Below, one piece after another: positions 42,175-59,014 of a DNA stretch of 64,000 nucleotides (positions are counted from its first letter, which is position 1; the number at the start of each line of letters is the position of its first letter). The position numbers and the translations under genes were made by a program. Origin of the DNA: Candidatus Eiseniibacteriota bacterium (lineage in GTDB: Bacteria > Eisenbacteria > RBG-16-71-46). Location: contig JBBRLX010000012.1 of NCBI GenBank assembly GCA_038231135.1, positions 32,001 through 96,000 of the forward strand. The letters run 5' to 3'. Under the pieces are notes generated by a model, which did not search any database, had not been told where the DNA came from, and saw only the letters and a program-made list of their open reading frames with translations.

Positions 42175-45105
42175 CTACCTCACGATCGTAATCTTCCGCG
42201 CCAGCTCCCGGGCGCCGTTCGACAGCCGCACGAAGTACGGCCCCGCGGCCACGCGGTGGCCGCCGTCATCGAGGCCGTTCCACTGGATCGCATGCAATCC
42301 GGCTTCGAGCGCGCCATCCGCGAGCGTTCGCACGGAACGGCCCGACAGGTCGTAGACGCGCAGCGCCACGCGACCCGGGGCGGGCAGCGTAAAGCGCAGT
42401 GTCGTGCGGCCGAACGCGGGGTTCGGCATCGGGGCCGAGAACTCCAGCCCGGCAGCCGCATTCCCGTCGCCGACAGCCAGCGTCGCCGGGAAGTGCAGCA
42501 GCCGGAAGTCGTCGATGCCGGCCTCGACCAGCGAGCCGCCGGCCGAGTCCTGCGCCACGAACCGCATCTTCATGTTCGCGGTGGGCGTGACGTAGTCGTC
42601 GATGAAGAACAGGATGCGCTGCCACGAGCTCGCCGACTCGAGCGTGTTCTCGACCACCACCCAGCTCGCGCCGCCGTTGTTCGAGATGTACGTGCGCCAG
42701 TAGTCGGCGTTGGGTTCGCCACCGAGGGCGTTCGTGTACCAGCGGTAGTACTCGAGCATGGGGTGCTGACCGGCGGTGGCGTCGAACGTGTTCGTGGTCA
42801 GCGTCGTCCTTCCGCCGTCGACGTCGTTGGCCCCCGCGTCATCGCCCACGGTGCCGATGCCGGTGACCCAGCAGAAGATTCCCGGCGCGGGGGTGTGATC
42901 GTCCTCTGGAGCGCACTGCACGCCACCCACGTTCGTTCCGTTGGGGTTCCCGCGCTCCCAGGTCCCGGTGACCGCATTGTCGCCGGGCGCTCCCACCGTC
43001 CAGTGTGGATCGGCGTCCATGTCCTGCAGGAACACGGTCGATGCCGGTCCGGCCAGGAACGTGTACACCGCCCGCGTCGGCGCCACGGCGGGATCGGTCG
43101 TGCCGGCGCCGTAGGTATCCTTCGCCGAGATCCAGTAGTGGACGATGCCGAACTGGAGAAACGGGATCTGCGCGCGGAACTCGTTCGGATTGCCGGTCGG
43201 AGTCATCGTGAGGGTCGTGTAGCCGCCGTTGTTGATCGAGTAGTGCAGCGTCGGTGAATTCGGATCGAGCGTGCCCACGGGGCCCGAATACTGGAACGTT
43301 GCGACCACTGGATATGGGGACGTCCCGTTCTGGTCCGCGAGCGGGGTGTGCGTGATGTGGATGAAGAAGCCGGTGCCGATGCCGTGCGCGTTGAACGCCG
43401 CGACGATCTGCGAGAAGTGTGGCGTGCCGTTGCCGAGGTTCGCATCGTTGTCGTCCACGACCAGCGTCTCTACAAAATAGTCGCTGAACGCGACGCCGTC
43501 GTCGGGGTCGTCGGGCTTGCCGTACTTGGCGAAGTGTTCGAGGTGCGTCGCGAGCGTTATGCCGATCGACTGGCGCAGGTCCCAGAACGCGCCGCCGATG
43601 ATGAGGCCGGTGGCGTGCGGGTCGCCGCTCTCGTTGTCGGGCCAGCGGGCGGTGTTGACGAGGTGGCGCAGCGTGGTGCCGGGGCCGAAGAATCCCTTGC
43701 CGATGTTGGGGTCGTCCTGCAAGAACGCCGCATTCACGTCGGCCATGCCCTCGTGGAGGGCGGCGTTCAGCATGCCGTTCGGCGAGCCCGCGGCCACGTA
43801 CATGTTGTCGTTGATGCCGTGCCCGTACTCGTGATAGATCACGTCGGCGATGGTGCCGGTGTTCACGCAGCCGGCGCCGGCACGAAAGAAGTTGACGCCG
43901 ACGCCGTCCCAGAACGCGTTGCAGGTGGAGTTCACGTTGACCCGCGTGGGCACCGCGTAGTCCATGCCGGTAAATGTGGGGTCCACGCCCTTGATGAACG
44001 CGTGCACGCGGTTCACGTGGTAGTAGGCGTCCCGCTCGGCGTCGTTGGCCTTCGTTCCGTCCCATAGCAGGTTGACGTTGTTCTGGAAATTCGACGCCGA
44101 GGTGGAGATGACACCCGGCGGCGGCAGGTCGTCGTTGATGTCGCAGTAGGTGCCGACCAGGCTGTCGGTCACGATCACGACGCCGGTGGCGGCCGCGGAA
44201 TAGTTGCCCACGGAATCGGTGACGGCGATATTGGGCCCCACGAACACCTTGAGATTCGGCAGATTGACCGTCTCGAGCAGATCGGTGGGCGTGATCGGAT
44301 GGATCGTCGCCGTGACTTTTCCCGAGATGTTGTGGCGCACGCGATCCTGCCGCCACAGCACCTCGCCGGTGTTGGCGTCGACGAGCGTCCACCAGTTGCC
44401 GGGCGGATCCTGCACGAGGACGTGCTCCTCGTAGACCAGCCTGTATTCGGCGGCGCCTTCGCTGCCGTCATTCCAAGGCAGGATCCACGTGCCGCCGTCC
44501 TCGACCTTATCCCGGCCGTCGACGAAATCGAGGCCGGTGTGCGCCGCTTCGCGCGCGGCCGCCCGCACCAGCGCGGGGGTGGTGCGCACCGCGGTGGCCG
44601 GCGAATGCCGGTCGGCGCCGAACATCATGAGGCGGCCGTTCGTGCCGACGCGGAACTCCCAATCCGAGAACAGCACCGGCACACCGTTCAGTGTCTGGCG
44701 ATACCGCGCGTACCACACGTGGCCGTGCTGCCCGACGTTCACCGCCGCGAGTTCCGGCGCGCCGAACAGGTCCGGATTCCCGCGCACGAACGCCCGCACC
44801 GCGCGATCCACAGAATTCGAGTCGTTGGCTGCGCCGGGCAGCGGGATCGATGGCCCGAATGCGCGATGCGGCGATGCCGTACGCCCGTTCCAGTTTGCGA
44901 TCCAGTCACCGTGCTGCGAGCGAAAGCTCTGCCACGCCGGCGACGCATCGAGCAACGCCTGGCGTGCTCCGCCGATCGCCACGGGATGGACGGCCGCCGG
45001 CATCACTTCGCCGCGCGGCACCCGATCGGACAGCGTCGCCGCTCCGGCCGGAACCGCGATCAACGCGAATGCACACAGCGAGGCCAGGCGCATGAATCGG
45101 TGCAC
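42175..45105 (-). CDS. Secreted M4/M36-type zinc metallopeptidase with FTP/PepSY propeptide and C-terminal FlgD-like Ig domain
   Basis: Signal peptide; YRQTLNGVPV; VDANTGEVL; CNAFWDG; VIYHEYGH; ALHEGMAD; C-terminal PNP..RVYDLSGR.VRTL..WNGLDD.G..GPYFVRL. Confidence 0.88.
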   Translation of the reverse strand: MHRFMRLASLCAFALIAVPAGAATLSDRVPRGEVMPAAVHPVAIGGARQALLDASPAWQSFRSQHGDWIANWNGRTASPHRAFGPSIPLPGAANDSNSVDRAVRAFVRGNPDLFGAPELAAVNVGQHGHVWYARYRQTLNGVPVLFSDWEFRVGTNGRLMMFGADRHSPATAVRTTPALVRAAAREAAHTGLDFVDGRDKVEDGGTWILPWNDGSEGAAEYRLVYEEHVLVQDPPGNWWTLVDANTGEVLWRQDRVRHNISGKVTATIHPITPTDLLETVNLPNLKVFVGPNIAVTDSVGNYSAAATGVVIVTDSLVGTYCDINDDLPPPGVISTSASNFQNNVNLLWDGTKANDAERDAYYHVNRVHAFIKGVDPTFTGMDYAVPTRVNVNSTCNAFWDGVGVNFFRAGAGCVNTGTIADVIYHEYGHGINDNMYVAAGSPNGMLNAALHEGMADVNAAFLQDDPNIGKGFFGPGTTLRHLVNTARWPDNESGDPHATGLIIGGAFWDLRQSIGITLATHLEHFAKYGKPDDPDDGVAFSDYFVETLVVDDNDANLGNGTPHFSQIVAAFNAHGIGTGFFIHITHTPLADQNGTSPYPVVATFQYSGPVGTLDPNSPTLHYSINNGGYTTLTMTPTGNPNEFRAQIPFLQFGIVHYWISAKDTYGAGTTDPAVAPTRAVYTFLAGPASTVFLQDMDADPHWTVGAPGDNAVTGTWERGNPNGTNVGGVQCAPEDDHTPAPGIFCWVTGIGTVGDDAGANDVDGGRTTLTTNTFDATAGQHPMLEYYRWYTNALGGEPNADYWRTYISNNGGASWVVVENTLESASSWQRILFFIDDYVTPTANMKMRFVAQDSAGGSLVEAGIDDFRLLHFPATLAVGDGNAAAGLEFSAPMPNPAFGRTTLRFTLPAPGRVALRVYDLSGRSVRTLADGALEAGLHAIQWNGLDDGGHRVAAGPYFVRLSNGARELARKITIVR

Positions 45106-46640: not shown

Positions 46641-47776
46641 GCCGCACCTACGACGTCGCCGTGCTCGGGTTGGGCGCGATGGGCAGCGCCGCGCTGTGCC
46701 ACCTCGCGCGCGCGGGCCTGTCGGTGGTGGGGCTCGAGCAATTCGTGAGCCCCCACGCGCAGGGCTCGTCGCACGGCGGCAGTCGCATCATTCGCGAGGC
46801 CTACTTCGAGGATCCCCGTTATGTGCCGCTGGTGCATCGCGCCTACGAGGAATGGGACCGCCTCGAGCGCGACACCGGGCAGCAGCTGCGACGGACGACA
46901 GGCGGAGTGATGATCGGGCCGGAGGCGGGCGTGCTGGTCGCGGGGGCGCTGGCCAGCGCGCGCACCCACGGTCTCCAGTACGAGCTGCTCGGCGCGGCGG
47001 AGTTGCAGCGCCGGTTTCCGGCGTTCCACCCGGCGGACGACATGGTGGGAGTGTGGGAGCCGCGCGCCGGCGTGCTGTTCCCCGAGCGCTGCATCACGAC
47101 GCACCTCGAACTGGCCACGCGCGCGGGCGCCGCGGTGCGGTCGCTCGAGACCGTCCGGTCATGGCGCGCGCGCTCGGGCGCGGTCGAGATCTCGACCGCG
47201 CGCGGCACCGTGCGCGCCGGCCAGCTCGTGCTCGCGTGTGGCGCTTGGATGCCGGGGTTTCTCGATGGCGCCGAGCTGCCGCTCGCGGTCGAGCGCGTGG
47301 TGCAGGCGTGGTTCGAGCCGGTGTCGCCCGAAGCGCTCGTGCCCGAGCGCTGTCCGGTCACGATCTGGGAATACGCCCCCGGCCGGTTCTACTACGCATT
47401 CCCGCTGCTCGACGGCGCGGTGAAGGCGGCGCTGCACCATCAGGGCACGCCTGCCGACCCGGAGCGCGTGCGGAGCGAACCTGAGCCGGCGGAGCTCGAG
47501 CGCATCCGCGAGCCGCTGCGGCGCCACATGCCCGACGCCGACGGACCGCTGCGCGAGGCGCGCGTCTGCCTCTACACGAACACGCCCGACGAGCACTTCG
47601 TGATCGATCGCCATCCCGCGCACAATCAGGTGCTGATCGTGAGCGCCTGCTCGGGCCACGGCTTCAAATTCTCGAGCGCGATCGGCGCGATCGTGACGGA
47701 ATTGGTGCGGGATGGGACGACGTCGGCGGATCTGGCGATGTTCGGGGCGGGGCGGTTTTTGAAGCCCGTTCCTTAA
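46637..47776 (+). CDS. solA: Monomeric sarcosine oxidase / N-methyl-L-tryptophan oxidase
   Basis: GLGAMGSAA, GSSHGGSRIIREAYFE, CLYTNTPDEHFVID, CSGHGFKF; GTGA overlap. Confidence 0.92.
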   Translation: MSRTYDVAVLGLGAMGSAALCHLARAGLSVVGLEQFVSPHAQGSSHGGSRIIREAYFEDPRYVPLVHRAYEEWDRLERDTGQQLRRTTGGVMIGPEAGVLVAGALASARTHGLQYELLGAAELQRRFPAFHPADDMVGVWEPRAGVLFPERCITTHLELATRAGAAVRSLETVRSWRARSGAVEISTARGTVRAGQLVLACGAWMPGFLDGAELPLAVERVVQAWFEPVSPEALVPERCPVTIWEYAPGRFYYAFPLLDGAVKAALHHQGTPADPERVRSEPEPAELERIREPLRRHMPDADGPLREARVCLYTNTPDEHFVIDRHPAHNQVLIVSACSGHGFKFSSAIGAIVTELVRDGTTSADLAMFGAGRFLKPVP

Positions 47777-49161
47777 GGCCGCGATTCCCCGTTCCCTGCC
47801 GCGACCTCACTCCCCAGCCACCGCGCCACGATCTTGTCGCGCCGCTCCTCGAGGATCTTCACCAGGTATTCGACCGCGCGGGGATCGGAGTAGTCTCCGG
47901 CCTCGACGGCGGCGCGGATCAGCTCGTCGGTGAATCCGGCGACGATGCGGGCGCCCCACTTCACGTCGGCGTCGGTGCGCGCGTCGAACGCCGGGTTGGG
48001 AATGAACGGCCGCCAGCTCTGCGGGCGAAACGTATCGGCTTCGAAGTAGCCGACGCTGGGCAGGTTTGGGTCGACGCCGTGTTCCCAGCGGTATGGCGGC
48101 AGCGCGAGCGTCCCGAGCGATCGCGTGACCGTGCCGTAGTCCACGAGGTACTCGTGGCCGTTGCGCGGCGTCTGCGACACCACCGACGCCGACCCGAGGC
48201 AGCCGTTGAAGTCGATCAGATGGTGCCGCACGAACGAGCGGCCGCCGTCGGTGACGTACATGTCGATCGTGTTGCGGGCGCTGCAATCGGTGTGCTGTGT
48301 CCAGGAATTGATCGTCCACAATCCGCGGATCTCACGGCGCAGTTCGTGCGGGATCCGGTCCTCGACATCGTCCTTGCGGCGGCCTTCGTAATGCCATTCG
48401 CCGAGCGGTTTGCCCTTGAGGAACCGGCTGGCGACCACGCGATACGCACTGTCCGCGGCAACCGGCACATCGCGCAGCAGGTCGTCGAGGAACGCCTTCG
48501 TGATCGGATACTTCTTCCCGGCGATGTCGTAGGTGGCGCCAGCGCCGACCACCAAATCGTCGCGGCGGAACCGGGCGATGGTGTTGTCGGGCACGTTGTA
48601 ACCGGCGGCCCAATACAACTTGGACACGACGACGTCGGCCGAGGTCGTGAGTTCCGGCGATGCGGGCGGGTCGAACTTGATCGCGAACCGCACGCCGTTC
48701 GCGTCCTTGATCTGGAATCCCTTCGAGACGCCTTCCGTCTTCGCTCGTACCACCGACCACTTCCCCGGCGCGGGGCCGGTGCCGGGGCCGGCGCCGGTGA
48801 GCATGTCGTGGACGGTCACCGTGCGGTAGCCGACGCGCGGCTGCCACCAGGTGCTCGGCAGGCGCACGCGGCCCTGCTCGTCCACGTTCGCGGCCTCGCG
48901 GCGTCCGACGCCCAGCTTGCGCACCAGCAGCGCCGGGTCGAGCGCGCGCGTCGCCGGCCGTACGAAGCTCTGATGAATCGCGTCGTAATAGTAGGAGATG
49001 CTGGTTGCGCGCGGCATGGGGATGGTGTCGGGCGGAGCGCCGTCGGCATGTGACGCCGGCGCGACGACCAGCGCCGACAACACGGCCGCGAACGCGCACG
49101 ACGTGCGCACGGGCGCGCAGCCAGGCGCCCGCCCGGCCGAACGCGCGAAACCGCGCGTCAT
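47773..49161 (-). CDS. Secreted protein with atypical protein-kinase-like motifs
   Basis: Signal peptide (ASHA/DG); KTEGVSKGF..FAIKFDP..ELTTSADVV; HTDCSARN; HLIDFNG; ATGA overlap with the upstream barrel gene. Confidence 0.65.
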   Translation of the reverse strand: MTRGFARSAGRAPGCAPVRTSCAFAAVLSALVVAPASHADGAPPDTIPMPRATSISYYYDAIHQSFVRPATRALDPALLVRKLGVGRREAANVDEQGRVRLPSTWWQPRVGYRTVTVHDMLTGAGPGTGPAPGKWSVVRAKTEGVSKGFQIKDANGVRFAIKFDPPASPELTTSADVVVSKLYWAAGYNVPDNTIARFRRDDLVVGAGATYDIAGKKYPITKAFLDDLLRDVPVAADSAYRVVASRFLKGKPLGEWHYEGRRKDDVEDRIPHELRREIRGLWTINSWTQHTDCSARNTIDMYVTDGGRSFVRHHLIDFNGCLGSASVVSQTPRNGHEYLVDYGTVTRSLGTLALPPYRWEHGVDPNLPSVGYFEADTFRPQSWRPFIPNPAFDARTDADVKWGARIVAGFTDELIRAAVEAGDYSDPRAVEYLVKILEERRDKIVARWLGSEVAAGNGESRP

Positions 49162-50549
49162 TCCACACCTCCGAGCGAGAACCGGATGCGGACGGACTCG
49201 GGGCCAGCGTCGACACCCGCCATGGCGATCACCTGGTGGAGGTCGCGCAATCGAATCGCGAGGCCACACGAGTGCCGCAAGTCCGTCACGCGCGCGGCCG
49301 CAAATCGCGGGAACACAGTGCCCGTCTCCGCGTGCAGATCACCTTCCAGATGGAGCCCGAGCGGAAAGATGTAACTGAGCTTCGCGGCGGCCTTGTCGAG
49401 GTCGCGGAAGCGTCCGGGTTCCCAGCCCGCGAGGCCGGCGCTGCCGCCGAGGCTCGCGAGATCGGCGATCAGGAACCGGCCGCCGCCCTGGTCTGGACGC
49501 TGATCCGTCGCATCGACCGCGAGCCGCAGCGAGCGCGGATCGTGTCCGAACGAGGCGCCCACCTCGGCTGCGGCGTTGAAGCGGGTGAACGACCTCGCAT
49601 CGGGATGGCCGTCGGAGAACGCGAACGCAGCGCGCGCGCGATCGAACCGCTCGGCGCTCGCCGATGCGCGCCAGCCGTGCGACCAGTGGGGCTGGCCGCC
49701 GCGCGAGTCGCGAGTGAGCGAGCCGCCATAGATGAAATGCTCGACCGGCCGCCCGAGGTTCGCGGCGTCGGCGGGGTACAGCACGTCGAACGACGGCCGG
49801 CGCGGGTCACGCCCGGTAGCCAGCACGGCCTCGCGCGAACCGACCCACAGCAATGCATTGGCGCGCGAACGTTCCGGCCCGCGTATGACCACGGGACTCG
49901 ACGCGGTGGCGCCGGACGGTGTCGGTTCGGGCAGTCTCCGCCACGGTATCGAAACCGTGAGCCGCACGGATTGCAGCCGTTCCGCGAACGCCGCCGCGCC
50001 CGCCTTGGGCGCCGACATTCCGACGCCGTAGTAGAGGTCGCGAGCGCGCCATTCAGAACTCCAGTTCCCGCGCCACGGGCCGAACGTCACCGACATGCGC
50101 TCACGATTGTAGTGATTCGTACTGCCGCTCACGTCCGCAAGGACATGCCCGCGCGTGAACGGGGGTGACCACAGCACCGCGCCGCCGAATCCGGTGCGGT
50201 CGCCCAGCGATGCTGGGGTGACCGCGAACTGGACGCGGCGTTGGAACGCGAAGGCTTCCTTCACCCGGATGTCCAGACGATCCTGCTCCACGTGCAGCAG
50301 GCCGAGATCGGCCGCGCGGCCCAGCGCCGACAGCGGCAGAGAAACGATGCGCCCCGGAAAGCGCAGCACGGATTCCCATCGCTCGGCGGCCGGCACCGCG
50401 GCGGGAGGGTTCCAGGGCCGCTCGGTGCTGGCACGCAGGTCGGTCCCCACGTACGTCGAATCGACGGATCCCGACAACGCCGGGGTCGCGATGCACGCCA
50501 CCATCGACAGCAGCAGCGTGAGTCCGAGGAGCGGCACATGGACGCGCAT
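49158..50549 (-). CDS. Omp85/BamA-TamA-like outer-membrane beta-barrel protein without evident POTRA domains
   Basis: Signal peptide; LYYGVG; LTRDSRG..P..GW; SLGGSAGLAGWEPGRFRD (variant of the LRGY..RF loop-6 motif); alternating beta-strand pattern; IRFSLG near the C-terminus. Confidence 0.65.
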   Translation of the reverse strand: MRVHVPLLGLTLLLSMVACIATPALSGSVDSTYVGTDLRASTERPWNPPAAVPAAERWESVLRFPGRIVSLPLSALGRAADLGLLHVEQDRLDIRVKEAFAFQRRVQFAVTPASLGDRTGFGGAVLWSPPFTRGHVLADVSGSTNHYNRERMSVTFGPWRGNWSSEWRARDLYYGVGMSAPKAGAAAFAERLQSVRLTVSIPWRRLPEPTPSGATASSPVVIRGPERSRANALLWVGSREAVLATGRDPRRPSFDVLYPADAANLGRPVEHFIYGGSLTRDSRGGQPHWSHGWRASASAERFDRARAAFAFSDGHPDARSFTRFNAAAEVGASFGHDPRSLRLAVDATDQRPDQGGGRFLIADLASLGGSAGLAGWEPGRFRDLDKAAAKLSYIFPLGLHLEGDLHAETGTVFPRFAAARVTDLRHSCGLAIRLRDLHQVIAMAGVDAGPESVRIRFSLGGVE

Positions 50550-50628
50550 GAGGAATGCGGAATATGAACCATTCCCCCGCCAAGTCAACGTCCTTGGACG
50601 GCCGCGCCCGCCGGGCTACCCTTTGGGC

Positions 50629-53346
50629 ATGATCGCCCGTCTGGCACGCCTGCTAAAGCTCGAACCCGAGGAAACCCGGCTTGCGCTGGCGTTCGGGGCG
50701 GTGCTGTTCGTGCTCACGGCGTCCTACACGCTCGTCAAGACCGCGCGCGACGCGCTGTTCCTGGCCCACATGCCCGCGAACCGGCTGCCCTACGTCTATC
50801 TGGCCGTGGGCGTGCTCACGACGATCGCGGCCGTGGCGTATGCCCGCGTCACTCGCGGTCGCCGTGCGCTGCAGGCGCTCGAATGGGCGACCTGGTTCTC
50901 GGCCGCGGTCCTCGGCTGGTTCGCCTGGGGCATTCGCGGCGGGGCACACGTCACGGTGGTGGCGTTCTACCTGTGGGTCAACATCTATGGACTTATCTTG
51001 TTTTCGCAGTTCTGGCTGTACGCGAATGCAGCGTCCGATCCGCGGGAAGCGAAGCGCACGTTCGGCATGATCGGCACCGGGGGCATCATCGGCGGACTGG
51101 TGGGCGGCATCGTCGCTCCCGTGCTCGTCGGTCCGGGTGGCCTCCACTCGCTCGTGCTGCTGGCCGCGGTGTTGCTGCTGCTGGCGGCGGCGGCGTTGCG
51201 GTTCGCGTCGGAACGCCGCCGCTCGGCGATGCCTCAGGAGCCGCTGCCGGTCGACGACGCGGCCGGACCGTTCCGGAGTCGCTACGTGCGGTGGCTCGCG
51301 CTCGGGGCATTGTGTTCGGTGCTGGTGGGCACGCTGCTCGACTACCAGTTCAAGGTCGAGCTCCAGCACCGCAACCCCTCGCCGAAGACGATCGCGTCGA
51401 TGTTCGGATTGTTCTACACGTTCACGAATCTCGCCGCGATCGCCGTGCAGTTGTTCGTGTCGCGCTGGTCATTGCGCCGCCTCGGCGCCGGCTGGTCGGC
51501 GGGTCTGCTGCCCGCGGGGCTCACGGTGGGTGCGGCTGCCATGGCATTCGTCCCCGGGTTCGGCGCCGTGGTCGGAGCGCGGACCTGGGATCAGGTGCTG
51601 CGCATCTCGATCAACAAGCCCGCGAACGAGCTGCTGTTCTTCCCGCTGCCGGCCGGCGTGCGGCGCCGCGCCAAGGCGTGGATCGAATCGGGTCTCGAGC
51701 GGCTCGGCGACGCGTTCGCCGGCATCGTGATCCTCGCCACCGGCATGATGTTCGGATCGTCGGTGCGGGTGGTCGCGACGCTGATGCTGCTGCTGATCCT
51801 GGTGTGGGCGGTGGCGTGGATTCGCATCCGCCGCGGCTATGTGCGCGAGCTGGGACGCAACCTGCGGCGCCTGAATCTCGACCCGCGCGGCAGCCGGATC
51901 TCGCTGCGCGAATCCCACGTGCTCGAGGAGATGGCGCGGCTGGTCGACAGCCCTCACGAACGAATCGTGCTGCATGGCATCGAGCTGCTCGAGGAGTCCG
52001 CTCCGGAGCAACTGCGCGAGCGGGTGCCCGAGCTGCTGGATCATCCGGTGGCCGCCGTGCGCGCGCGTGCGCTGCGCGCGATCGGGGCGAACGCCACGCC
52101 GGAGGTCGCGCTGCGCGTCGCGGCGATGCTCCACGATCCGGATCCCGAGGTGCGCATGGCGGCGCTGCGGGTGCAATGCATGGTGGGTGGCGCGCCGTCG
52201 CTCGACACGGCGGAGGCGTTCCTCGGGTCCGACGACCCGCACCTGCGGCGCAGTGCGCTCGAGTGCATGGTCGAGGCGCGCGGCGCGGTGGAGGAGGACC
52301 GCGTCCGGCGCGTCATCGAACGCCGGCTCGACGGGGCGGACACGGCCGACCGTGTGGCGATCGCCGAGGCGCTGGGCCGCCGCGAGCCGCCGACCCGCCT
52401 GCATGAGCTGCTGCCCCCGCTGGCGGACGATGCCGAGCTCACGGTGCGCAATGCCGCGATGGTGAGTGCCGGGCGCGCGGGATTGCGCATACTGGTGCCG
52501 CGGATGATCGCGTCACTGACCCAGCGCCACAGCCGCACGCCGGCGCGCACCGCGCTGGCGTCGTTTGGCGACCGCATCACGGGGACGCTCGGCGACTATC
52601 TCGCCGATCCGAGCTCGGATCTGGCGTTGCGCCGCGAACTGCCCCGCGTGCTCGGCGACATCGCGACTCCCGATGCCGTGATCGCGCTGATGCGCTACCG
52701 CGAGCGCGACGACGTGCGACTGTCGTACCGGGTGCTCAAGGCGATGAACAAGATCCGCGCCCGCACCCGACAGGCGCGATTCCCGCGCGATCTGGTGAGC
52801 GCGGATCTCGAGCACGACGTGCGGAACTTCCTGTTCGCGTTCGTCCACTACCGCAGCTGTCCGATCGGCAACGTGCGGAGCGCCGAGCGCCTGCTGTGCA
52901 TCGCTCTCAACGAGCGCATGGACCAGGCGCTCAATCGCATCTTCCGCCGCCTCGCGCTGATCTACCCGGCGGACGAGACCTACGCCGGCTACCGTGGCAT
53001 CGTGTCCGACAACCCGCGACTGCGCGGCAACGCGCTCGAATACATCGAGAACGTGCTATCGGCGGAACACGCGGCACTGGTGCTGCCGCTGGTCGATGAC
53101 TCCGGTGACGCGGGCCGGCTGCGGTTCGCGGATTCGCGATTCGGCATTCGGTTCGCCGGCTATCTGGAATCGCTGGGGGCGATCCTCGACCACGACGACG
53201 CCTGGCTCGCCATCTGCGCCCTGTACGTCGCCGGCTCGCAACGCGAGGGTTCGCTGCTGGACCACGTGGAACGGCAGACCGCATCGAACCACCCGCATGT
53301 CCGCGCAACCGCGCTGTGGGCGCAGGCGGCACTGGTGACGGCATGA
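50629..53346 (+). CDS. NTT/TLC (Npt1/Npt2-like) nucleotide transporter fused to HEAT repeats
   Basis: YTLVKTARDALFL, FYLWVNIY..SQFW..AN..DPREAKR.F..IG.GG..GG, LDYQF, RISINKPANELLFFPLP..RRRAKAWIE..R.GD; then HEAT repeats (LLDHP..VRARAL, LHDPDPEVRMAAL, LRGNALEYIEN). Confidence 0.85.
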   Translation: MIARLARLLKLEPEETRLALAFGAVLFVLTASYTLVKTARDALFLAHMPANRLPYVYLAVGVLTTIAAVAYARVTRGRRALQALEWATWFSAAVLGWFAWGIRGGAHVTVVAFYLWVNIYGLILFSQFWLYANAASDPREAKRTFGMIGTGGIIGGLVGGIVAPVLVGPGGLHSLVLLAAVLLLLAAAALRFASERRRSAMPQEPLPVDDAAGPFRSRYVRWLALGALCSVLVGTLLDYQFKVELQHRNPSPKTIASMFGLFYTFTNLAAIAVQLFVSRWSLRRLGAGWSAGLLPAGLTVGAAAMAFVPGFGAVVGARTWDQVLRISINKPANELLFFPLPAGVRRRAKAWIESGLERLGDAFAGIVILATGMMFGSSVRVVATLMLLLILVWAVAWIRIRRGYVRELGRNLRRLNLDPRGSRISLRESHVLEEMARLVDSPHERIVLHGIELLEESAPEQLRERVPELLDHPVAAVRARALRAIGANATPEVALRVAAMLHDPDPEVRMAALRVQCMVGGAPSLDTAEAFLGSDDPHLRRSALECMVEARGAVEEDRVRRVIERRLDGADTADRVAIAEALGRREPPTRLHELLPPLADDAELTVRNAAMVSAGRAGLRILVPRMIASLTQRHSRTPARTALASFGDRITGTLGDYLADPSSDLALRRELPRVLGDIATPDAVIALMRYRERDDVRLSYRVLKAMNKIRARTRQARFPRDLVSADLEHDVRNFLFAFVHYRSCPIGNVRSAERLLCIALNERMDQALNRIFRRLALIYPADETYAGYRGIVSDNPRLRGNALEYIENVLSAEHAALVLPLVDDSGDAGRLRFADSRFGIRFAGYLESLGAILDHDDAWLAICALYVAGSQREGSLLDHVERQTASNHPHVRATALWAQAALVTA

Positions 53347-54020
53347 TCGAAGACACTCTGACCCTGGTCGAGAAGACCGCGTTCCTCAAGAGCGTGCCGG
53401 TGCTGGCGTCGATCCCCACCGAGCCGCTCGCGGAGCTGGCGAGCCGCGCTCGTGAGATCTCGCTGGAACCGGGCGAGGTTGCGTTCCACGCCGGCGACGC
53501 GAATACCGGCTCGTACCTGATCATGGACGGGCTGCTGCAGTTGAAGCGCGGTGATGCCGTGGTCCGCGTGTTACGAAGCGGCATGGCGTTCGGCGAGCTG
53601 TGGCGTTCCGATCGCGAACCGCACCAATATCAGTTGATCGCGATCGAGACCTCGCACGCGCTCAACTTCACCAGCGACGACGTGTTCGAGGCCATGAACG
53701 AGTACCCCGAGTTCGGCGTGGCGATGGTGCAGGCATTCGCCCTGCGCATTCACGAAGTGACGAGCCGCGTCCTGGACCTCGAGAGCGTCATCGCGCGATT
53801 GACCGAGGAGCTGGTGCGCCACGGCATCGAGCTGCCCGAGCTGCCGGCGTCGTTGATCGAGCCCATCACGCCGGGCGAGCAGTTGCTCGGAGGCACGTCG
53901 GCGCCGTGGCCCGGGTTGCCGACGGCTGCGGCAACGAAGGCTTCGGCCGGCGGGGCACCCGCCGCCGGACCCGTCGCGCCCGCGCCGTCCGGCACGCCCG
54001 GTACCGAACCCACTTCGTGA
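53343..54020 (+). CDS. Cyclic nucleotide-binding domain protein
   Basis: LTLVEKTAFLKSVP, GEVAFHAGD, YLIMDG, GMAFGEL; ATGA overlap. Confidence 0.8.
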   Translation: MIEDTLTLVEKTAFLKSVPVLASIPTEPLAELASRAREISLEPGEVAFHAGDANTGSYLIMDGLLQLKRGDAVVRVLRSGMAFGELWRSDREPHQYQLIAIETSHALNFTSDDVFEAMNEYPEFGVAMVQAFALRIHEVTSRVLDLESVIARLTEELVRHGIELPELPASLIEPITPGEQLLGGTSAPWPGLPTAAATKASAGGAPAAGPVAPAPSGTPGTEPTS

Positions 54021-55458: not shown

Positions 55459-57747
55459 CTACTCCGCCGCCATCACGCGCCGCTCGAGGCTCCGGAACCG
55501 TTCGTCGCCGCGAAGCGGGTCGAGGCGCGGGTGCACGCGGACCCACACCAGCGCGCGATCGCGCTCGCGGAACGCGCGTTCCAGCCACTCGATTGCCTGG
55601 TCGTTGTCTCCGAGACCCAGCAGGATCGCCGCGATCGCGTAAGCCGACACGAACCGGCGCGACGACTCGGCCTGCAGGTGCTCGAGGACGCGGCGCGCCT
55701 CGGCCGTGCGTCCGGCGCGGGCCAGCGTGTAGCCGATGCCGACCGACGCCAGCGGGTTCGCGCCGCTGATCAGCCGCGCGCGCTCGAACGCCTCCAGCGC
55801 CTCGTCGTACTGGCCCGCCTGCGACAGCACCCGGCCCACATCGTTGATCGCCTGATAGAACGCGGGATCGATCTCGATCGTGTGGCGCAGCACTGCCAGC
55901 GCCTCGTCGTAGCGTCGCGCGAAGAAGTACGAGTCGCCGAGCGTAGTACCCATGATCGGGGCCTGAGGGTCCATCTCGTAGGCGCGACGCGCCTCGTCGA
56001 TGCCGCGGTCGAACTCGCCGAGCGCGGACAGCAGCTCTGCGTACCATTGGTGCGCGGTGGGATAGCCGGGCTGGAGTGCCAGCGCCTTGTCGTACGACTT
56101 CCGCGCCGCCTTCCAGTCCCAGTCGTAGAACATCTGCAGGGATCCGAGCGATGTGTGGGCCTCACCGAGCTCGGGGTCGAGCTCCAGTGCACGCGCAAGG
56201 GCCGCCTTCGATTTCGCCGCGGCCTCGTGCGGCAGCATCGCGTTCATGTCGCCGAGCAGGTTGTAGGAATCCGCGATGCCCACGTACGGCTGCGGATAGT
56301 CGGGGTCGATCGCGATCGCCTGCTCGAACTGCGCGATGCCGCGGCGCATCTCGGTCTCGGTGCGGCGATTCCAATGGAACCGGCCCCGCAGATAGGCCTC
56401 GTACGCGCGCGGGTCGATCACCCGCGGCCCCCGCAGCCGAGATTCCTCGCGGGGCGTGAGCTGCACACTCACTTCCTTTGCCACGCTGCACGCTGCCTCC
56501 GCCTGCAGCTCGAGCACGCCAGCCGTGGTGCCTTCGTACTGCTGTGCCCACAGCAGCCGGTCCGCGACCGCGTCGATGAGCTGGACGCTGATGCGCACGT
56601 TGTCCGCCGAGCGCTGGACGGAGCCTTCGATCACGCCCTGCACTCCCAGCTCGCGCGCGATGTCCCGCACCGGCAGCGCCGTGTCCTTGTAGCGCATCGC
56701 CGTGGTACGCGAGATCACGCGCAGCGCTCCGATGCCGGCGAGGCTCGCGATCAGCGCCTCGGTCATGCCGTCGGCGAAGAACTCCTGCGCAGGATCGCCC
56801 GACAGGTTGACGAGCGGGAGCACGGCGAGCGATGTGATGGCGGCGCGTGCGCCCGGCACTGCCCCGGCCTCGTGGCGCGGCGGCACGGCGCTGCCGCCGC
56901 TGGTCGCGCGGGGCGCCCCGGCCATCTTGTCTTCGTTCCGCAGCTCCTCGGCGAGCTCCCTCGCGCTCGCGTGACGCTGCGCCGGATCCTTCGCGAGCGC
57001 ACACAACACGGTCGAGGCGAACGCCTCGGACAATTCCTGGTGGGACTTTCGCGGCGACACCGGCGGCCGGTTGGCGATCGCATAGAGCAGCGCGGCCACG
57101 GTGTCGCCGGAATAGGGCCGGCCTCCGGTCGCGAGCTCGTAGAGGATCAGGCCAAGCGCATGGAGGTCCGCGGCCGGCCCTATGTCGCCGCCCGCGATCT
57201 GTTCCGGCGCCATGTACGCCAGCGTGCCCACCAAGGCGAGCGGCGCGGTCGCCGAGCGGGTCGCGTCGAAGTCGGCCGTGGTGACGCGGGCGAGCCCGAA
57301 GTCGAGCACCTTGGCGCGACCGTCGGGCGTCACGACCACGTTTCCCGGTTTCAAGTCGCGATGCACGACGCCGTGCGCGTGGGCGGCAGCGAGCGCGTCG
57401 GCGATCTGGGCGCCCAGCTCGCGAACGCGCGCTTCGGACAGCGGTCCGGCGGCGGCGACCGTCGCCAGCGTGTCCCCCGGCACGTACTCCATGACCATGA
57501 AGTCGGCGCCGTTCTCGTGATCGAACTCGTACACCGTCGCGATGCCGGGATGATTGAGCCGCGACAGCGCGAGCGCCTCGGTCCGGAACCGGCCGCGGGT
57601 GGCCGCGTTCACGAGTGCGTCGGCATTGAGCATCTTGATCGCCACCTCGCGCTCGAGCCGCTCGTCCCGGGCCAGGTACACCACCCCCATGCCTCCCGCG
57701 CCGAGGCGCCGCAGGACGCGATAGTGCGAGATCACCGTGTCGATCAT
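55459..57747 (-). CDS. Hanks-type Ser/Thr protein kinase with TolB-N/FlgO-like domain and TPRs
   Basis: LGAGGMGVVY, VAIK, HRDLKPGN, DFG, YMAPE; SLAVLPLVNLSGDPAQEFFADGMTE; AYEAYLRG followed by TPRs. Confidence 0.93.
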   Translation of the reverse strand: MIDTVISHYRVLRRLGAGGMGVVYLARDERLEREVAIKMLNADALVNAATRGRFRTEALALSRLNHPGIATVYEFDHENGADFMVMEYVPGDTLATVAAAGPLSEARVRELGAQIADALAAAHAHGVVHRDLKPGNVVVTPDGRAKVLDFGLARVTTADFDATRSATAPLALVGTLAYMAPEQIAGGDIGPAADLHALGLILYELATGGRPYSGDTVAALLYAIANRPPVSPRKSHQELSEAFASTVLCALAKDPAQRHASARELAEELRNEDKMAGAPRATSGGSAVPPRHEAGAVPGARAAITSLAVLPLVNLSGDPAQEFFADGMTEALIASLAGIGALRVISRTTAMRYKDTALPVRDIARELGVQGVIEGSVQRSADNVRISVQLIDAVADRLLWAQQYEGTTAGVLELQAEAACSVAKEVSVQLTPREESRLRGPRVIDPRAYEAYLRGRFHWNRRTETEMRRGIAQFEQAIAIDPDYPQPYVGIADSYNLLGDMNAMLPHEAAAKSKAALARALELDPELGEAHTSLGSLQMFYDWDWKAARKSYDKALALQPGYPTAHQWYAELLSALGEFDRGIDEARRAYEMDPQAPIMGTTLGDSYFFARRYDEALAVLRHTIEIDPAFYQAINDVGRVLSQAGQYDEALEAFERARLISGANPLASVGIGYTLARAGRTAEARRVLEHLQAESSRRFVSAYAIAAILLGLGDNDQAIEWLERAFRERDRALVWVRVHPRLDPLRGDERFRSLERRVMAAE

Positions 57748-57814
57748 GGAGTGCAGGTTATCACCGCGGCGGCCCCGCTTCACGACGCGCGGCTTTGAGC
57801 GTAATCTCCCGCTC

Positions 57815-59014
57815 ATGGCCAAGTCCTACATCATCATCGGCGGCGGCAATGCCGCGGCTTCCGCAATCGAAGGCATTCGCGAGCACGATACCGACGGCTC
57901 GATCCTGTTGGTGTCGCGCGAGAACCATCTGCCGTACGAGCGTCCGCCGCTGTCCAAGGAGTTGTGGTTCGGCAAGAAGACGCTCGACGCGATCTCGCTG
58001 CACGACGAGGCGTGGTATCGCGAGCGCAGCGTCGAGGTCGCGCTGCGGCGCGAGGTCGTCGAAATCGATCCGGCACAGCATGCGGTGTGGGACGATCGCG
58101 GTGATCGCCACGACTACGACGCGTTGCTGATGGCCACGGGAAGCCGGCCGCGGCTGATGGGCGGAGCGGGAGTCGGAGTGGAAGGCATCCACTACTACCG
58201 GTCGCTCGAAGACTATCTGGTGCTCAGGGACCGGCTGCGCACGGTGCAGCACGTGCTGGTGGTGGGCGGCGGGTTCATCACGATCGAGATTGCCGCGGCC
58301 CTGCGCCACAACGGAGTCGAGGTCACGTTCGTCTACCCGCACGAGTATCCGCTGCAGCGCGTGCTGCCGCGCGAGCTCGGGCTGCACGTCGCCGAGTACT
58401 ACCGGGAGAAGGGCATCGAGACACTGTCGGGCGACGCCATCACCGGATTCGAGAATCGTCAGGGGCTGATCGAGGCGCAGACGCGCGGCGGGAATACGAT
58501 CACCACCCAGCTCGTGCTCGTCGGCATCGGCGTGGAGCCGTCGGTCGAGCTGGCCGAGGCGTGCGGCCTCGAGGTCGGCAACGGCATCGAGGTCGACGAA
58601 TTCGCGCGCACCTCGGACGCGAGCATCTGGGCCGCCGGCGACGTGGCCGGGTTCCCGTACCTGGCACTCGGCGAACGCACGCGCATCGAGCACTGGGACC
58701 ACGCGGAGCATCATGGGCGTGCGGCCGGGGCCAACATGGCCGGCGCGAACAAGCCGTACGACCACCTGCCGTTCTTCTGGTCGGACTTCTTCGACATGGG
58801 CTGGGAGGCGGTCGGCGACACCGATTCGAGCCTCGAGATGGACGTGATCTGGAACGAGCCGTTCAAGGAAGGCATGCTGTTCTACCTGCGCGAGGACGTC
58901 ATCCGCGGGGTACTGATGTGGAACATGTGGGAGAAGGTCGAGTGGGCGCGCGACCGGATTCGCGAGGCCCGGCCCAGCACTCATGCCGAACGCGAAGCCT
59001 GGGTGCACGGCTGA
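57815..59014 (+). CDS. FAD-dependent pyridine nucleotide oxidoreductase (ferredoxin/MDHAR-type reductase)
   Basis: IIGGGNAA, PYERPPLSKEL, ATGSRP, VGGGFI..E, IWAAGDVA, RIEHWDHA, PFFWSD. Confidence 0.9.
   Translation: MAKSYIIIGGGNAAASAIEGIREHDTDGSILLVSRENHLPYERPPLSKELWFGKKTLDAISLHDEAWYRERSVEVALRREVVEIDPAQHAVWDDRGDRHDYDALLMATGSRPRLMGGAGVGVEGIHYYRSLEDYLVLRDRLRTVQHVLVVGGGFITIEIAAALRHNGVEVTFVYPHEYPLQRVLPRELGLHVAEYYREKGIETLSGDAITGFENRQGLIEAQTRGGNTITTQLVLVGIGVEPSVELAEACGLEVGNGIEVDEFARTSDASIWAAGDVAGFPYLALGERTRIEHWDHAEHHGRAAGANMAGANKPYDHLPFFWSDFFDMGWEAVGDTDSSLEMDVIWNEPFKEGMLFYLREDVIRGVLMWNMWEKVEWARDRIREARPSTHAEREAWVHG

Follow-up and report, generated by a model that had tools for sequence, protein, structure and literature searches.

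An exported kinase-fold protein, a POTRA-less Omp85 barrel and an NTT-HEAT carrier form a candidate periplasmic phosphorylation module in Candidatus Eisenbacteria and other phyla

We analysed a 64,000-nucleotide (nt) stretch of contig JBBRLX010000012.1 (the window) from a Candidatus Eiseniibacteriota bacterium (assembly GCA_038231135.1), whose closest named relatives carry the label Candidatus Eisenbacteria. The locus in question encodes a kinase-like protein, an Omp85 barrel, an NTT/TLC carrier fused to HEAT repeats (NTT-HEAT) and a stand-alone protein of the cyclic-nucleotide-monophosphate (cNMP)-binding fold (Table 1). An earlier note on this DNA had described it as two translationally coupled pairs of genes around a divergent gap, and a check of the open reading frames (ORFs) found the genes, the pairs and the gap in place. 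Overlaps of 4 nt (ATGA) join the kinase gene to the barrel gene and the carrier gene to the cNMP-fold gene, and the pairs point away from the gap. The source genome (4.09 Mb, 93% complete) holds two kinase and two barrel copies, three NTTs and two close cNMP-fold genes. Its second copy of the module, on contig C6, is fuller: two metallophosphoesterases, a barrel, a kinase, a HEAT-less NTT, an NTT-HEAT and a cNMP-fold gene lie on one strand, and a third close phosphoesterase stands alone at the beginning of contig C16. The window locus lacks the exported metallophosphoesterase and the HEAT-less second NTT, both of which the second copy has. In that copy, a TonB C-terminal-like gene (L032:6373-7164, named by eye) lies directly upstream of the barrel.

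Table 1. Features of the locus in the window and the second copy of the module in the same genome
Feature	Position	Strand	Length	Basis or remark
Kinase-like protein P0001	47773-49161	-	462 aa	ORF; signal-peptide-like N-terminus to about residue 39
Omp85 barrel P0002, POTRA-less	49158-50549	-	463 aa	ORF, AF2, Foldseek
Divergent intergenic region	50550-50628		79 nt	between barrel P0002 and NTT-HEAT P0003
NTT/TLC carrier fused to HEAT repeats, P0003	50629-53346	+	905 aa	ORF, Pfam
Stand-alone cNMP-binding-fold protein P0004	53343-54020	+	225 aa	ORF, Pfam
MATE gene P0005	54017-55423	+		ORF, Pfam MatE
Second module copy	L032:4690-16748 (contig C6, about 106700-118750)			two metallophosphoesterases and two NTTs

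P0001 matched no Pfam or NCBIfam family at E ≤ 0.1, and a PDB sequence search was also empty; its scores stayed under the cut-offs of the named kinase families (Fam20C PF06702, CotH, HipA_2), and its nearest family-scored Atlas neighbours lay at 0.83-0.84. The AlphaFold2 (AF2) model built from 137 rows (pLDDT 91.8) had CtkA as its top Foldseek match (E 2e-4), and Fam20C was found too. Structural comparison with VIA gave Z scores of 13.8 for CtkA (root-mean-square deviation 3.8, 219 residues aligned), 13.1 for Fam20, 12.6 for PI4KII, 12.1 for CotH and 10.9 for HipA, with actin-fragmin kinase also among these matches (Z 13.8 to 10.9) and the next group at Z 7.4. Fourteen chains reached Z ≥ 8, and all those listed are kinases of the HipA/CtkA/Fam20/PI4KII group. 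By its model, P0001 is thus an atypical kinase fold of this type with intact catalytic residues, as the earlier note had supposed from motifs. Among 137 homologues, the β3 lysine K162 is conserved in 134, the catalytic aspartate D292 in 133, the Mg-binding N297 and D317 in 131 and 136, and a second lysine, K141, in 128, the roles being assigned from motif order rather than superposition. A hydrophobic N-terminal 10-mer (mean ≥ 1.6) occurs in 134 of the 137, a lipobox pattern in 56 and a twin-arginine pattern in five, all scored by regular expressions without SignalP. Clustering at 50% identity divides this large family into 2,427 clusters (E ≤ 0.001). In six of 120 homologues listed, a PAP2 phosphatase with PSGH and RxxxxxHWxxD motifs is fused to the C-terminus of the kinase, and segment 342-354 forms a conserved amphipathic helix. 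The kinase-barrel fusions that the earlier note suggested looking for were not found among forms of 1067-3045 aa, none of which bore a kinase alignment; this is a weak negative, and lengths of 810-1066 aa lay outside the search. Fusions of a phosphoesterase to the kinase family or to the barrel were likewise absent at 896-2555 aa, again a weak negative. One homologue, P0057, is joined to a peptidase S51 domain, a single case that may be a read-through.

The barrel P0002 also had no Pfam or NCBIfam match, and DUF5982 was likewise unmatched in Pfam. Its AF2 model (pLDDT 84.3) has 16 strands, a long loop 6, helices at 57-105 before strand 1 and no POTRA; Foldseek returned TamA (E 2.5e-11) and BamA, and Atlas clusters of Omp85 scored 0.98. 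As modelled, P0002 is a 16-stranded Omp85 barrel of the 'noNterm' type, which has no periplasmic POTRA domain. It begins with a signal peptide and ends in GGVE, not Phe. The Omp85 loop-6 motif, (V/I)RG(F/Y), is degenerate in P0002 (LAGW...RFRD), and the motif Arg is present in 25 of 82 barrel partners of non-pseudo kinases and in 11 of 11 partners of pseudokinases; G375, R380 and D383 are nearly invariant.

When barrel and kinase were folded together, the interface score ipSAE was 0.78 (partner pLDDT 88) against 0.00 for the best of three controls, and the runs shared at least 94% of contacts. Of 157 solved complexes, 116 score as high, as do 2 of 215 mismatched pairs; these figures are approximate, as our own alignments were used for the co-fold. 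The barrel makes contact through its N-terminal segment 29-88 and through two turns, 335-339 and 393-405; these turns join strands 10-11 and 12-13 (even to odd), and we read them, by Omp85 topology, as periplasmic. On the kinase they involve 56-119, 259-274, 305-312 and 331-360, with the catalytic residues not among the contacts listed and helix 342-354 packed against the membrane edge of the barrel. The kinase is therefore predicted to bind the periplasmic face of the barrel and not to lie at the cell exterior. The earlier note had left two options, that the kinase works with the barrel or that the barrel exports it; the co-fold supports the former, and the latter is not supported, as the kinase is predicted to dock at periplasmic turns of a barrel without POTRA. 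The barrel looks like a seat for the kinase beneath the inner leaflet, neither its exit nor clearly its substrate. No solved complex resembling the co-fold was found. The barrel position S143 carries Ser or Thr in 98% of the 82 barrels paired with non-pseudo kinases and in 0 of the 11 paired with pseudokinases; we set it aside as a phospho-acceptor because it sits in an extracellular turn distant from the predicted kinase and the contrast comes from one clade.

To trace the partnership of the genes, we fetched every other listed kinase locus (113) from 151 genomes of the window's phylum; related genomes are not independent in these counts, and we therefore attach no weight to P values. The barrel gene lies directly upstream of the kinase gene in 95 of 99 phylum loci with at least 1.6 kb of upstream sequence. 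At the 55 loci that lie outside the pseudokinase clade and have flanks of 5 kb or more on each side, the neighbours within 8 kb included an NTT at 45, an NTT-HEAT at 37, a second (single) NTT at 42, a metallophosphoesterase at 35 and a cNMP-fold gene at 27, and 55 of 58 phosphoesterases have a signal-like stretch. The exported phosphatases and second NTT that are missing at the window locus thus usually belong to the module. The head-to-head layout of the window, one of five layouts, recurs in 23 of 55 phylum loci having an NTT-HEAT near the kinase, so the arrangement is not chance; the co-occurrence of the four families expected by the earlier note holds as well. Among kinase-positive phylum genomes, 75 of 83 have an NTT match; for those without the kinase the figure is 16 of 68 at E ≤ 1e-5 and three of 68 at E ≤ 1e-15.

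The linkage extends beyond the phylum. A search with an 8-row alignment, from which 80 of 570 rows were kept with a bias to close matches, left 67 loci under other labels after 13 Eisenbacteria-like rows (≥ 54% identity) had been excluded; the barrel was adjacent to the kinase at 61 of them, with a phosphoesterase within 8 kb at 21. Where the kinase locus is without an NTT, 41 of 42 genomes carry one elsewhere. In an even sample of 121 Acidobacteriota genomes, an NTT was present in 20 of the 23 with the kinase and in 32 of the 98 without it. The module was found under the labels Eisenbacteria, Krumholzibacteria, Acidobacteriota, Zixibacteria, Calditrichota, Ignavibacteria, Gemmatimonadota, Latescibacterota, Poribacteria and Deltaproteobacteria. 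PiT phosphate transporters with DUF47, PPK2, diacylglycerol (DAG)-kinase-like and paired PAP2 genes also recur beside it (L045-L049, L053, L057, L059, L060, L062).

Degenerate kinases offer a view of what the carrier goes with. All eight kinase-bearing phylum genomes that are without an NTT carry only degenerate kinases that have lost K162, D292, N297 and D317. Across the phylum pseudokinases (11 rows), K141, K162, D292 and D317 are kept in 0-9%, and S103, W105, D268, H272, R275 and R276, in or beside the predicted barrel interface, are retained. The NTT family PF03219 was found in none of the eight pseudokinase-only genomes versus four of four same-family relatives that have an intact kinase too, and at pseudokinase loci the barrel is kept in 12 of 12, with an NTT or phosphoesterase nearby in 0 of 12. 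Of the three kinase-bearing Acidobacteriota genomes without an NTT, two (G220, G236) have another dead form, which nests with an intact kinase (support 0.986), separate from the phylum pseudokinase clade. In two separate lineages, then, the barrel accompanies the fold of the kinase and the carrier accompanies its catalytic state; such a joint loss of catalysis and carrier is what an ATP-supply link would predict. Adjoining the pseudokinases at 12 of 12 loci (L130-L134, L136-L138, L141-L143, L145) are genes for a cis-prenyltransferase (UppS-like) and a polyprenyl synthetase, and an HD-domain response regulator is present at 10 of the 12; they come from a single family, so this could be plain synteny.

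The carrier P0003 scores 38.7 bits against Pfam TLC (PF03219; cut-off 21) and also matches MFS_1 and HEAT_2, and the profile of its family finds the solved NTT1 structures of Chlamydia pneumoniae (9j3n, E 2e-40) and Arabidopsis (E 2e-31). It retains K37, R40, D238, K349 and R358, and its D361 aligns gap-free to K527 of Arabidopsis AtNTT1. Lys stands at this site in 12 of 163 NTTs examined, six of the 12 beside a second kinase family described below. What an acidic residue may do here is suggested by the matching change K446E in PamNTT1 (PMC2606016). In Table 1 of that paper, the Km of ATP import rises from 8.6 to 552 µM, and that of ADP import against internal ATP falls from 1401 to 29 µM; the mutant also shows no Pi transport and a lowered Vmax. 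Taken with D361, these kinetics point to the bias that an ATP exporter would need. The comparison draws on a single mutant of a protein that is some 25-30% alike, and the data would fit a different cargo as well. The cargo of P0003 may be ATP, moved outward.

A second kinase family came to light when the best NTT locus was taken from 16 of 32 NTT-positive, kinase-negative Acidobacteriota (nine NTT-HEAT, seven single NTT). At seven of the nine NTT-HEAT loci, all without a P0001-type kinase, the flanking genes encode exported HipA-like kinases of a different family, several of them fused to, or next to, exported phosphoesterases. Profile-profile comparison gave a probability of just 2.4% that the two families are related. 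With both families beside it, the NTT-HEAT carrier is tied twice to exported kinases, though not always. One locus (L247:11356-16878) has five tandem second-family kinases with signal peptides, together with a phosphoesterase, beside its NTT-HEAT gene. No kinase was found near the seven single-NTT loci; at L237-L240 and L242, the single NTT stands in a conserved neighbourhood with UppS, myo-inositol-1-phosphate synthase and a HemN-like radical SAM gene.

P0004 matches Pfam cNMP_binding (PF00027) with 41.5 bits (cut-off 27.5). The phosphate-binding cassette for cAMP or cGMP needs both a Glu and an Arg, and in P0004 it is degenerate, E85 being retained and H94 standing in place of Arg. At positions 85 and 94, 40 members carry Thr-Arg (27), Glu-His (11), Glu-Thr (one) or Ser-Arg (one), which form two clades: that of the window keeps Glu with His for Arg, the other keeps Arg with Thr for Glu. 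Because none of the 40 has both residues, gating of the carrier by cAMP in the ordinary way, one sense of the subunit gating proposed in the earlier note, is unlikely. P0004 may bind another ligand or play a structural role.

We propose, giving it somewhat better than an even chance, that a barrel-seated kinase is fed ATP by the NTT-HEAT carrier and phosphorylates a substrate at the inner leaflet of the outer membrane. The proposal builds on the fold, catalytic residues, signal peptides, gene linkage and joint loss of catalysis and carrier, all established here from sequence or by searches. The NTT carrier or carriers would export ATP against ADP across the inner membrane; the exported kinase, clamped in the predicted complex onto the periplasmic face of the POTRA-less barrel, would receive it and phosphorylate its substrate, most likely a lipid; and the reaction could be reversed by an exported phosphatase, either a metallophosphoesterase or a PAP2 enzyme, whose gene lies at the other copy of the module and not at the window locus. 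The role of the barrel would be that of an anchor, comparable to PlpD, whose Omp85 barrel holds a periplasmic lipase domain. Regulation of the carrier would come from the cytoplasmic side, through the HEAT tail and the cNMP-fold subunit, in response to a ligand that is unlikely to be conventionally bound cAMP. If the proposal is right, a lipid or glycolipid is the leading candidate substrate, at slightly under an even chance, because of the PAP2-kinase fusions, the membrane-edge helix 342-354 and the precedent of PlpD; an envelope protein comes close behind, and a solute arriving through the barrel is rather unlikely.

Several observations weigh against this proposal. Four residues are named for AtNTT1 (K155, E245, E385 and K527; PMC4256464, PMC3306366), and P0003 has Y57, N118 and D361 at the first, second and fourth, keeping only E385, as D238; the numbering uses an offset of 84 between the chain and Q39002 that was counted by hand and fits all four residues. 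P0003 reaches just 35 bits against the TIGR00769 cut-off of 387. The three replacements, together with the lower Vmax and missing Pi transport of K446E, mean that ATP may not be the cargo. The fold neighbours of the P0001 model are nearly tied (Z 10.9-13.8) and span protein, lipid and sugar kinases, so the fold does not name the substrate. Beyond the Eisenbacteria-like group, just 24 of the 67 kinases have an NTT within 8 kb. The other two of the nine Acidobacteriota NTT-HEAT loci are without a kinase, one with a phosphoesterase only and one with neither, and all five stand-alone NTT-HEAT-cNMP loci of the phylum have neither kinase family nearby. The pseudokinase signal comprises two evolutionary events only, kin are not independent, and four of 20 kinases in NTT-positive Acidobacteriota are without K162, with the other four residues kept. 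Two queries found no NTT in G276 and G155, each of which carries an intact kinase; the clearest exception is L234 (G276:C1), where an intact kinase and a barrel lie in an Acidobacteriota genome assembled as a single 5.34 Mb contig.

The carrier might instead serve the kinase with a different cargo, moving GTP or another donor out, or only ADP, AMP or NAD in while the donor enters the periplasm otherwise. The replaced equivalents of K155, E245 and K527 (the last being Asp in 107 of 122 phylum NTTs), the two intact kinases without an NTT, and the characterised NTTs beyond the ATP/ADP clade that move NAD or other purine nucleotides (PMC5381601) all agree with such a cargo. We nevertheless hold it rather unlikely, as the glycine-loop and β3 lysines and both Mg-binding positions match ATP-using kinases, Lys is kept in the 12 related NTTs mentioned above, half of them beside the second kinase family, and the acidic change in PamNTT1 favours ADP in and ATP out (PMC2606016). 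Scavenging is a slightly weaker candidate and improbable to us: the barrel would admit an outside solute such as a nucleoside, sugar or organophosphate, the kinase would trap it or the phosphoesterase free its phosphate, and the NTT would import the product. In its favour are the two different NTTs at most loci and some of the nearby genes: of 40 loci, 6 have PiT, 3 have PPK2 and 4 have a DAG-kinase-like gene. By structure, the NTT profile also has the SLC37A4 sugar-phosphate exchangers as its next relatives. Trapping too, however, requires periplasmic ATP; if a kinase and a phosphatase shared one solute, the cycle would be futile; the pair of barrel and pseudokinase survives where no carrier is present; and Omp85 barrels are closed by a lid formed by loop 6. 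The flow could even be reversed, with an enzyme making periplasmic ATP from an outside high-energy phosphate such as polyphosphate and the NTT importing it. NTTs normally import ATP and PPK2 and PiT genes lie by some loci, but the acidic residue at the K527 site cuts the affinity of ATP import 64-fold in PamNTT1 (PMC2606016), and paired phosphatases would waste the donor; this is the least probable of the alternatives.

The remaining alternatives question the partnership or its place. Barrel-kinase and NTT-HEAT-cNMP might be separate co-regulated or co-travelling units with no flow of substrate between them. Order and orientation do vary over the five layouts, the genes lie apart in many Acidobacteriota, and NTT-HEAT-cNMP stands alone at some loci and occurs in Chlamydia, cyanobacteria and oomycetes (PMC5381601). 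We give such independence only a small chance because the linkage survives rearrangement and crosses phyla, genomes with an NTT-less kinase locus nearly always hold an unlinked NTT, carrier loss tracks catalytic loss twice and the second kinase family is similarly linked. Smaller still is the chance of two-partner secretion, in which the barrel would export the kinase to the surface to use released ATP there, like the CtkA and CotH kinases. The order of barrel then passenger gene recalls type Vb systems, the barrel has the Omp85 fold, and the top fold match is the secreted kinase CtkA. The type Vb marks looked for, two POTRA domains on the TpsB barrel and a TPS domain on the passenger, were missing, with no POTRA on the barrel to receive a passenger and no Pfam domain on the kinase; moreover, the predicted contacts are periplasmic, the lipobox in 56 of 137 kinases is lipoprotein-like, and an inner-membrane carrier would be out of reach of the surface.

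Every part of the module belongs to a known superfamily, and the whole matches no described system that we found. The NTT-HEAT gene followed by a coupled cyclic-nucleotide-binding-domain (cNBD) gene was described by Major, Embley and Williams in 2017 (PMC5381601) without a function. The domain order is the same, the cNBD gene lying within a few bases there and overlapping by 4 nt here. They proposed cAMP-adjusted ATP uptake; in our case the cAMP pocket of the cNBD is incomplete and the gene context suggests export, and the text consulted in their paper names no kinase, barrel or phosphatase partner. AtNTT1, CpNTT1 and PamNTT1 (PDB 9j3j, 9j3n; PMC2606016, PMC3306366) share the homologous carrier domain, and the acidic E385 site and the basic pair of transmembrane helix 1 are kept in P0003. 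In contrast to these canonical translocases, P0003 has K155, E245 and K527 replaced, a HEAT tail, a free-living host and a probable direction opposite to theirs. The noNterm Omp85 proteins (Heinz and Lithgow 2014, PMC4104836; Leptospira, PMC11358297) are 16-stranded and POTRA-less like P0002 and resemble the 'Metallo' Omp85 barrels, which are fused to a PF00149 phosphoesterase (PMC4104836), whereas in the present module this phosphoesterase is a separate gene. The periplasmic partner of P0002 is a separate kinase chain, and the word kinase is absent from both PMC4104836 and PMC11358297. PlpD (Hanson et al. 2024, PMC11116518) has an Omp85 barrel that holds a periplasmic enzyme proposed to act on inner-leaflet lipids; it is a fused hydrolase with POTRA and is independent of ATP, unlike the barrel with a separate kinase here. 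Fam20C/Fam20B, CotH, CtkA, HipA and PI4K type II share the fold of P0001 (Z 10.9-13.8); P0001 stands apart from them by its low identity (7-13%), the lack of a Pfam match and its predicted binding to an outer-membrane barrel. Our literature search found no description of the module; most subscription papers and supplements, including that of Major 2017, which may list neighbours, lay outside its coverage.

Fam20 kinases work in an extracytoplasmic lumen and depend on imported ATP, and we know of no dedicated carrier for CotH or CtkA, nor of any ATP supply line for the bacterial periplasm; envelope machines are generally held to use the proton-motive force or cytoplasmic ATPases. The route of ATP across the bacterial inner membrane into the periplasm has been described as open (PMC7432876). 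The comparative evidence presented here argues strongly for a hitherto undescribed kind of system that bears on this question. More broadly, and tentatively, at just under an even chance, we suggest that many diderms run a periplasmic ATP economy in which retuned NTT-HEATs (ATP out, ADP in) power unrelated exported kinase families paired with exported phosphatases, the P0001 family working under its own Omp85 barrel. If this is true, the module would be a bacterial counterpart of the Fam20 kinases of the secretory pathway, would supply the route for ATP across the inner membrane, and would give a first function to the NTT-HEAT proteins of free-living bacteria and to POTRA-less Omp85 barrels. 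Many bacteria would then phosphorylate in the periplasm, which would change the view of how the envelope is supplied with energy. The module gives testable roles to the orphan NTT-HEAT/cNBD proteins, also found in Chlamydia and oomycetes, and to the noNterm Omp85 group.

The GC content of the locus is at the level of the remaining window, promoter and terminator scans of the locus stayed at chance level, and the 79-nt gap has a single weak sigma70-like match on the minus strand (9 of 12 positions, with 0.4 such matches expected by shuffling), which is not significant. The MATE gene that follows P0004, which the earlier note had listed with the pairs, is a local neighbour only, since its family is present in 5 of 40 other clustered loci; the FAD oxidoreductases and the Ser/Thr kinase-TPR gene of the window were rejected as parts of the module along with it, each being found in at most seven of the 40. 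That last gene (window 55459-57822, minus strand) encodes a Ser/Thr protein kinase with TolB_N-like and TPR regions, of a common type without a link to the module. On the other side, at 42175-45105 on the minus strand, lies a gene for a 976-aa exported protein that by eye resembles an M4/M36 metalloprotease (HEYGH) with a C-terminal sorting-type domain.

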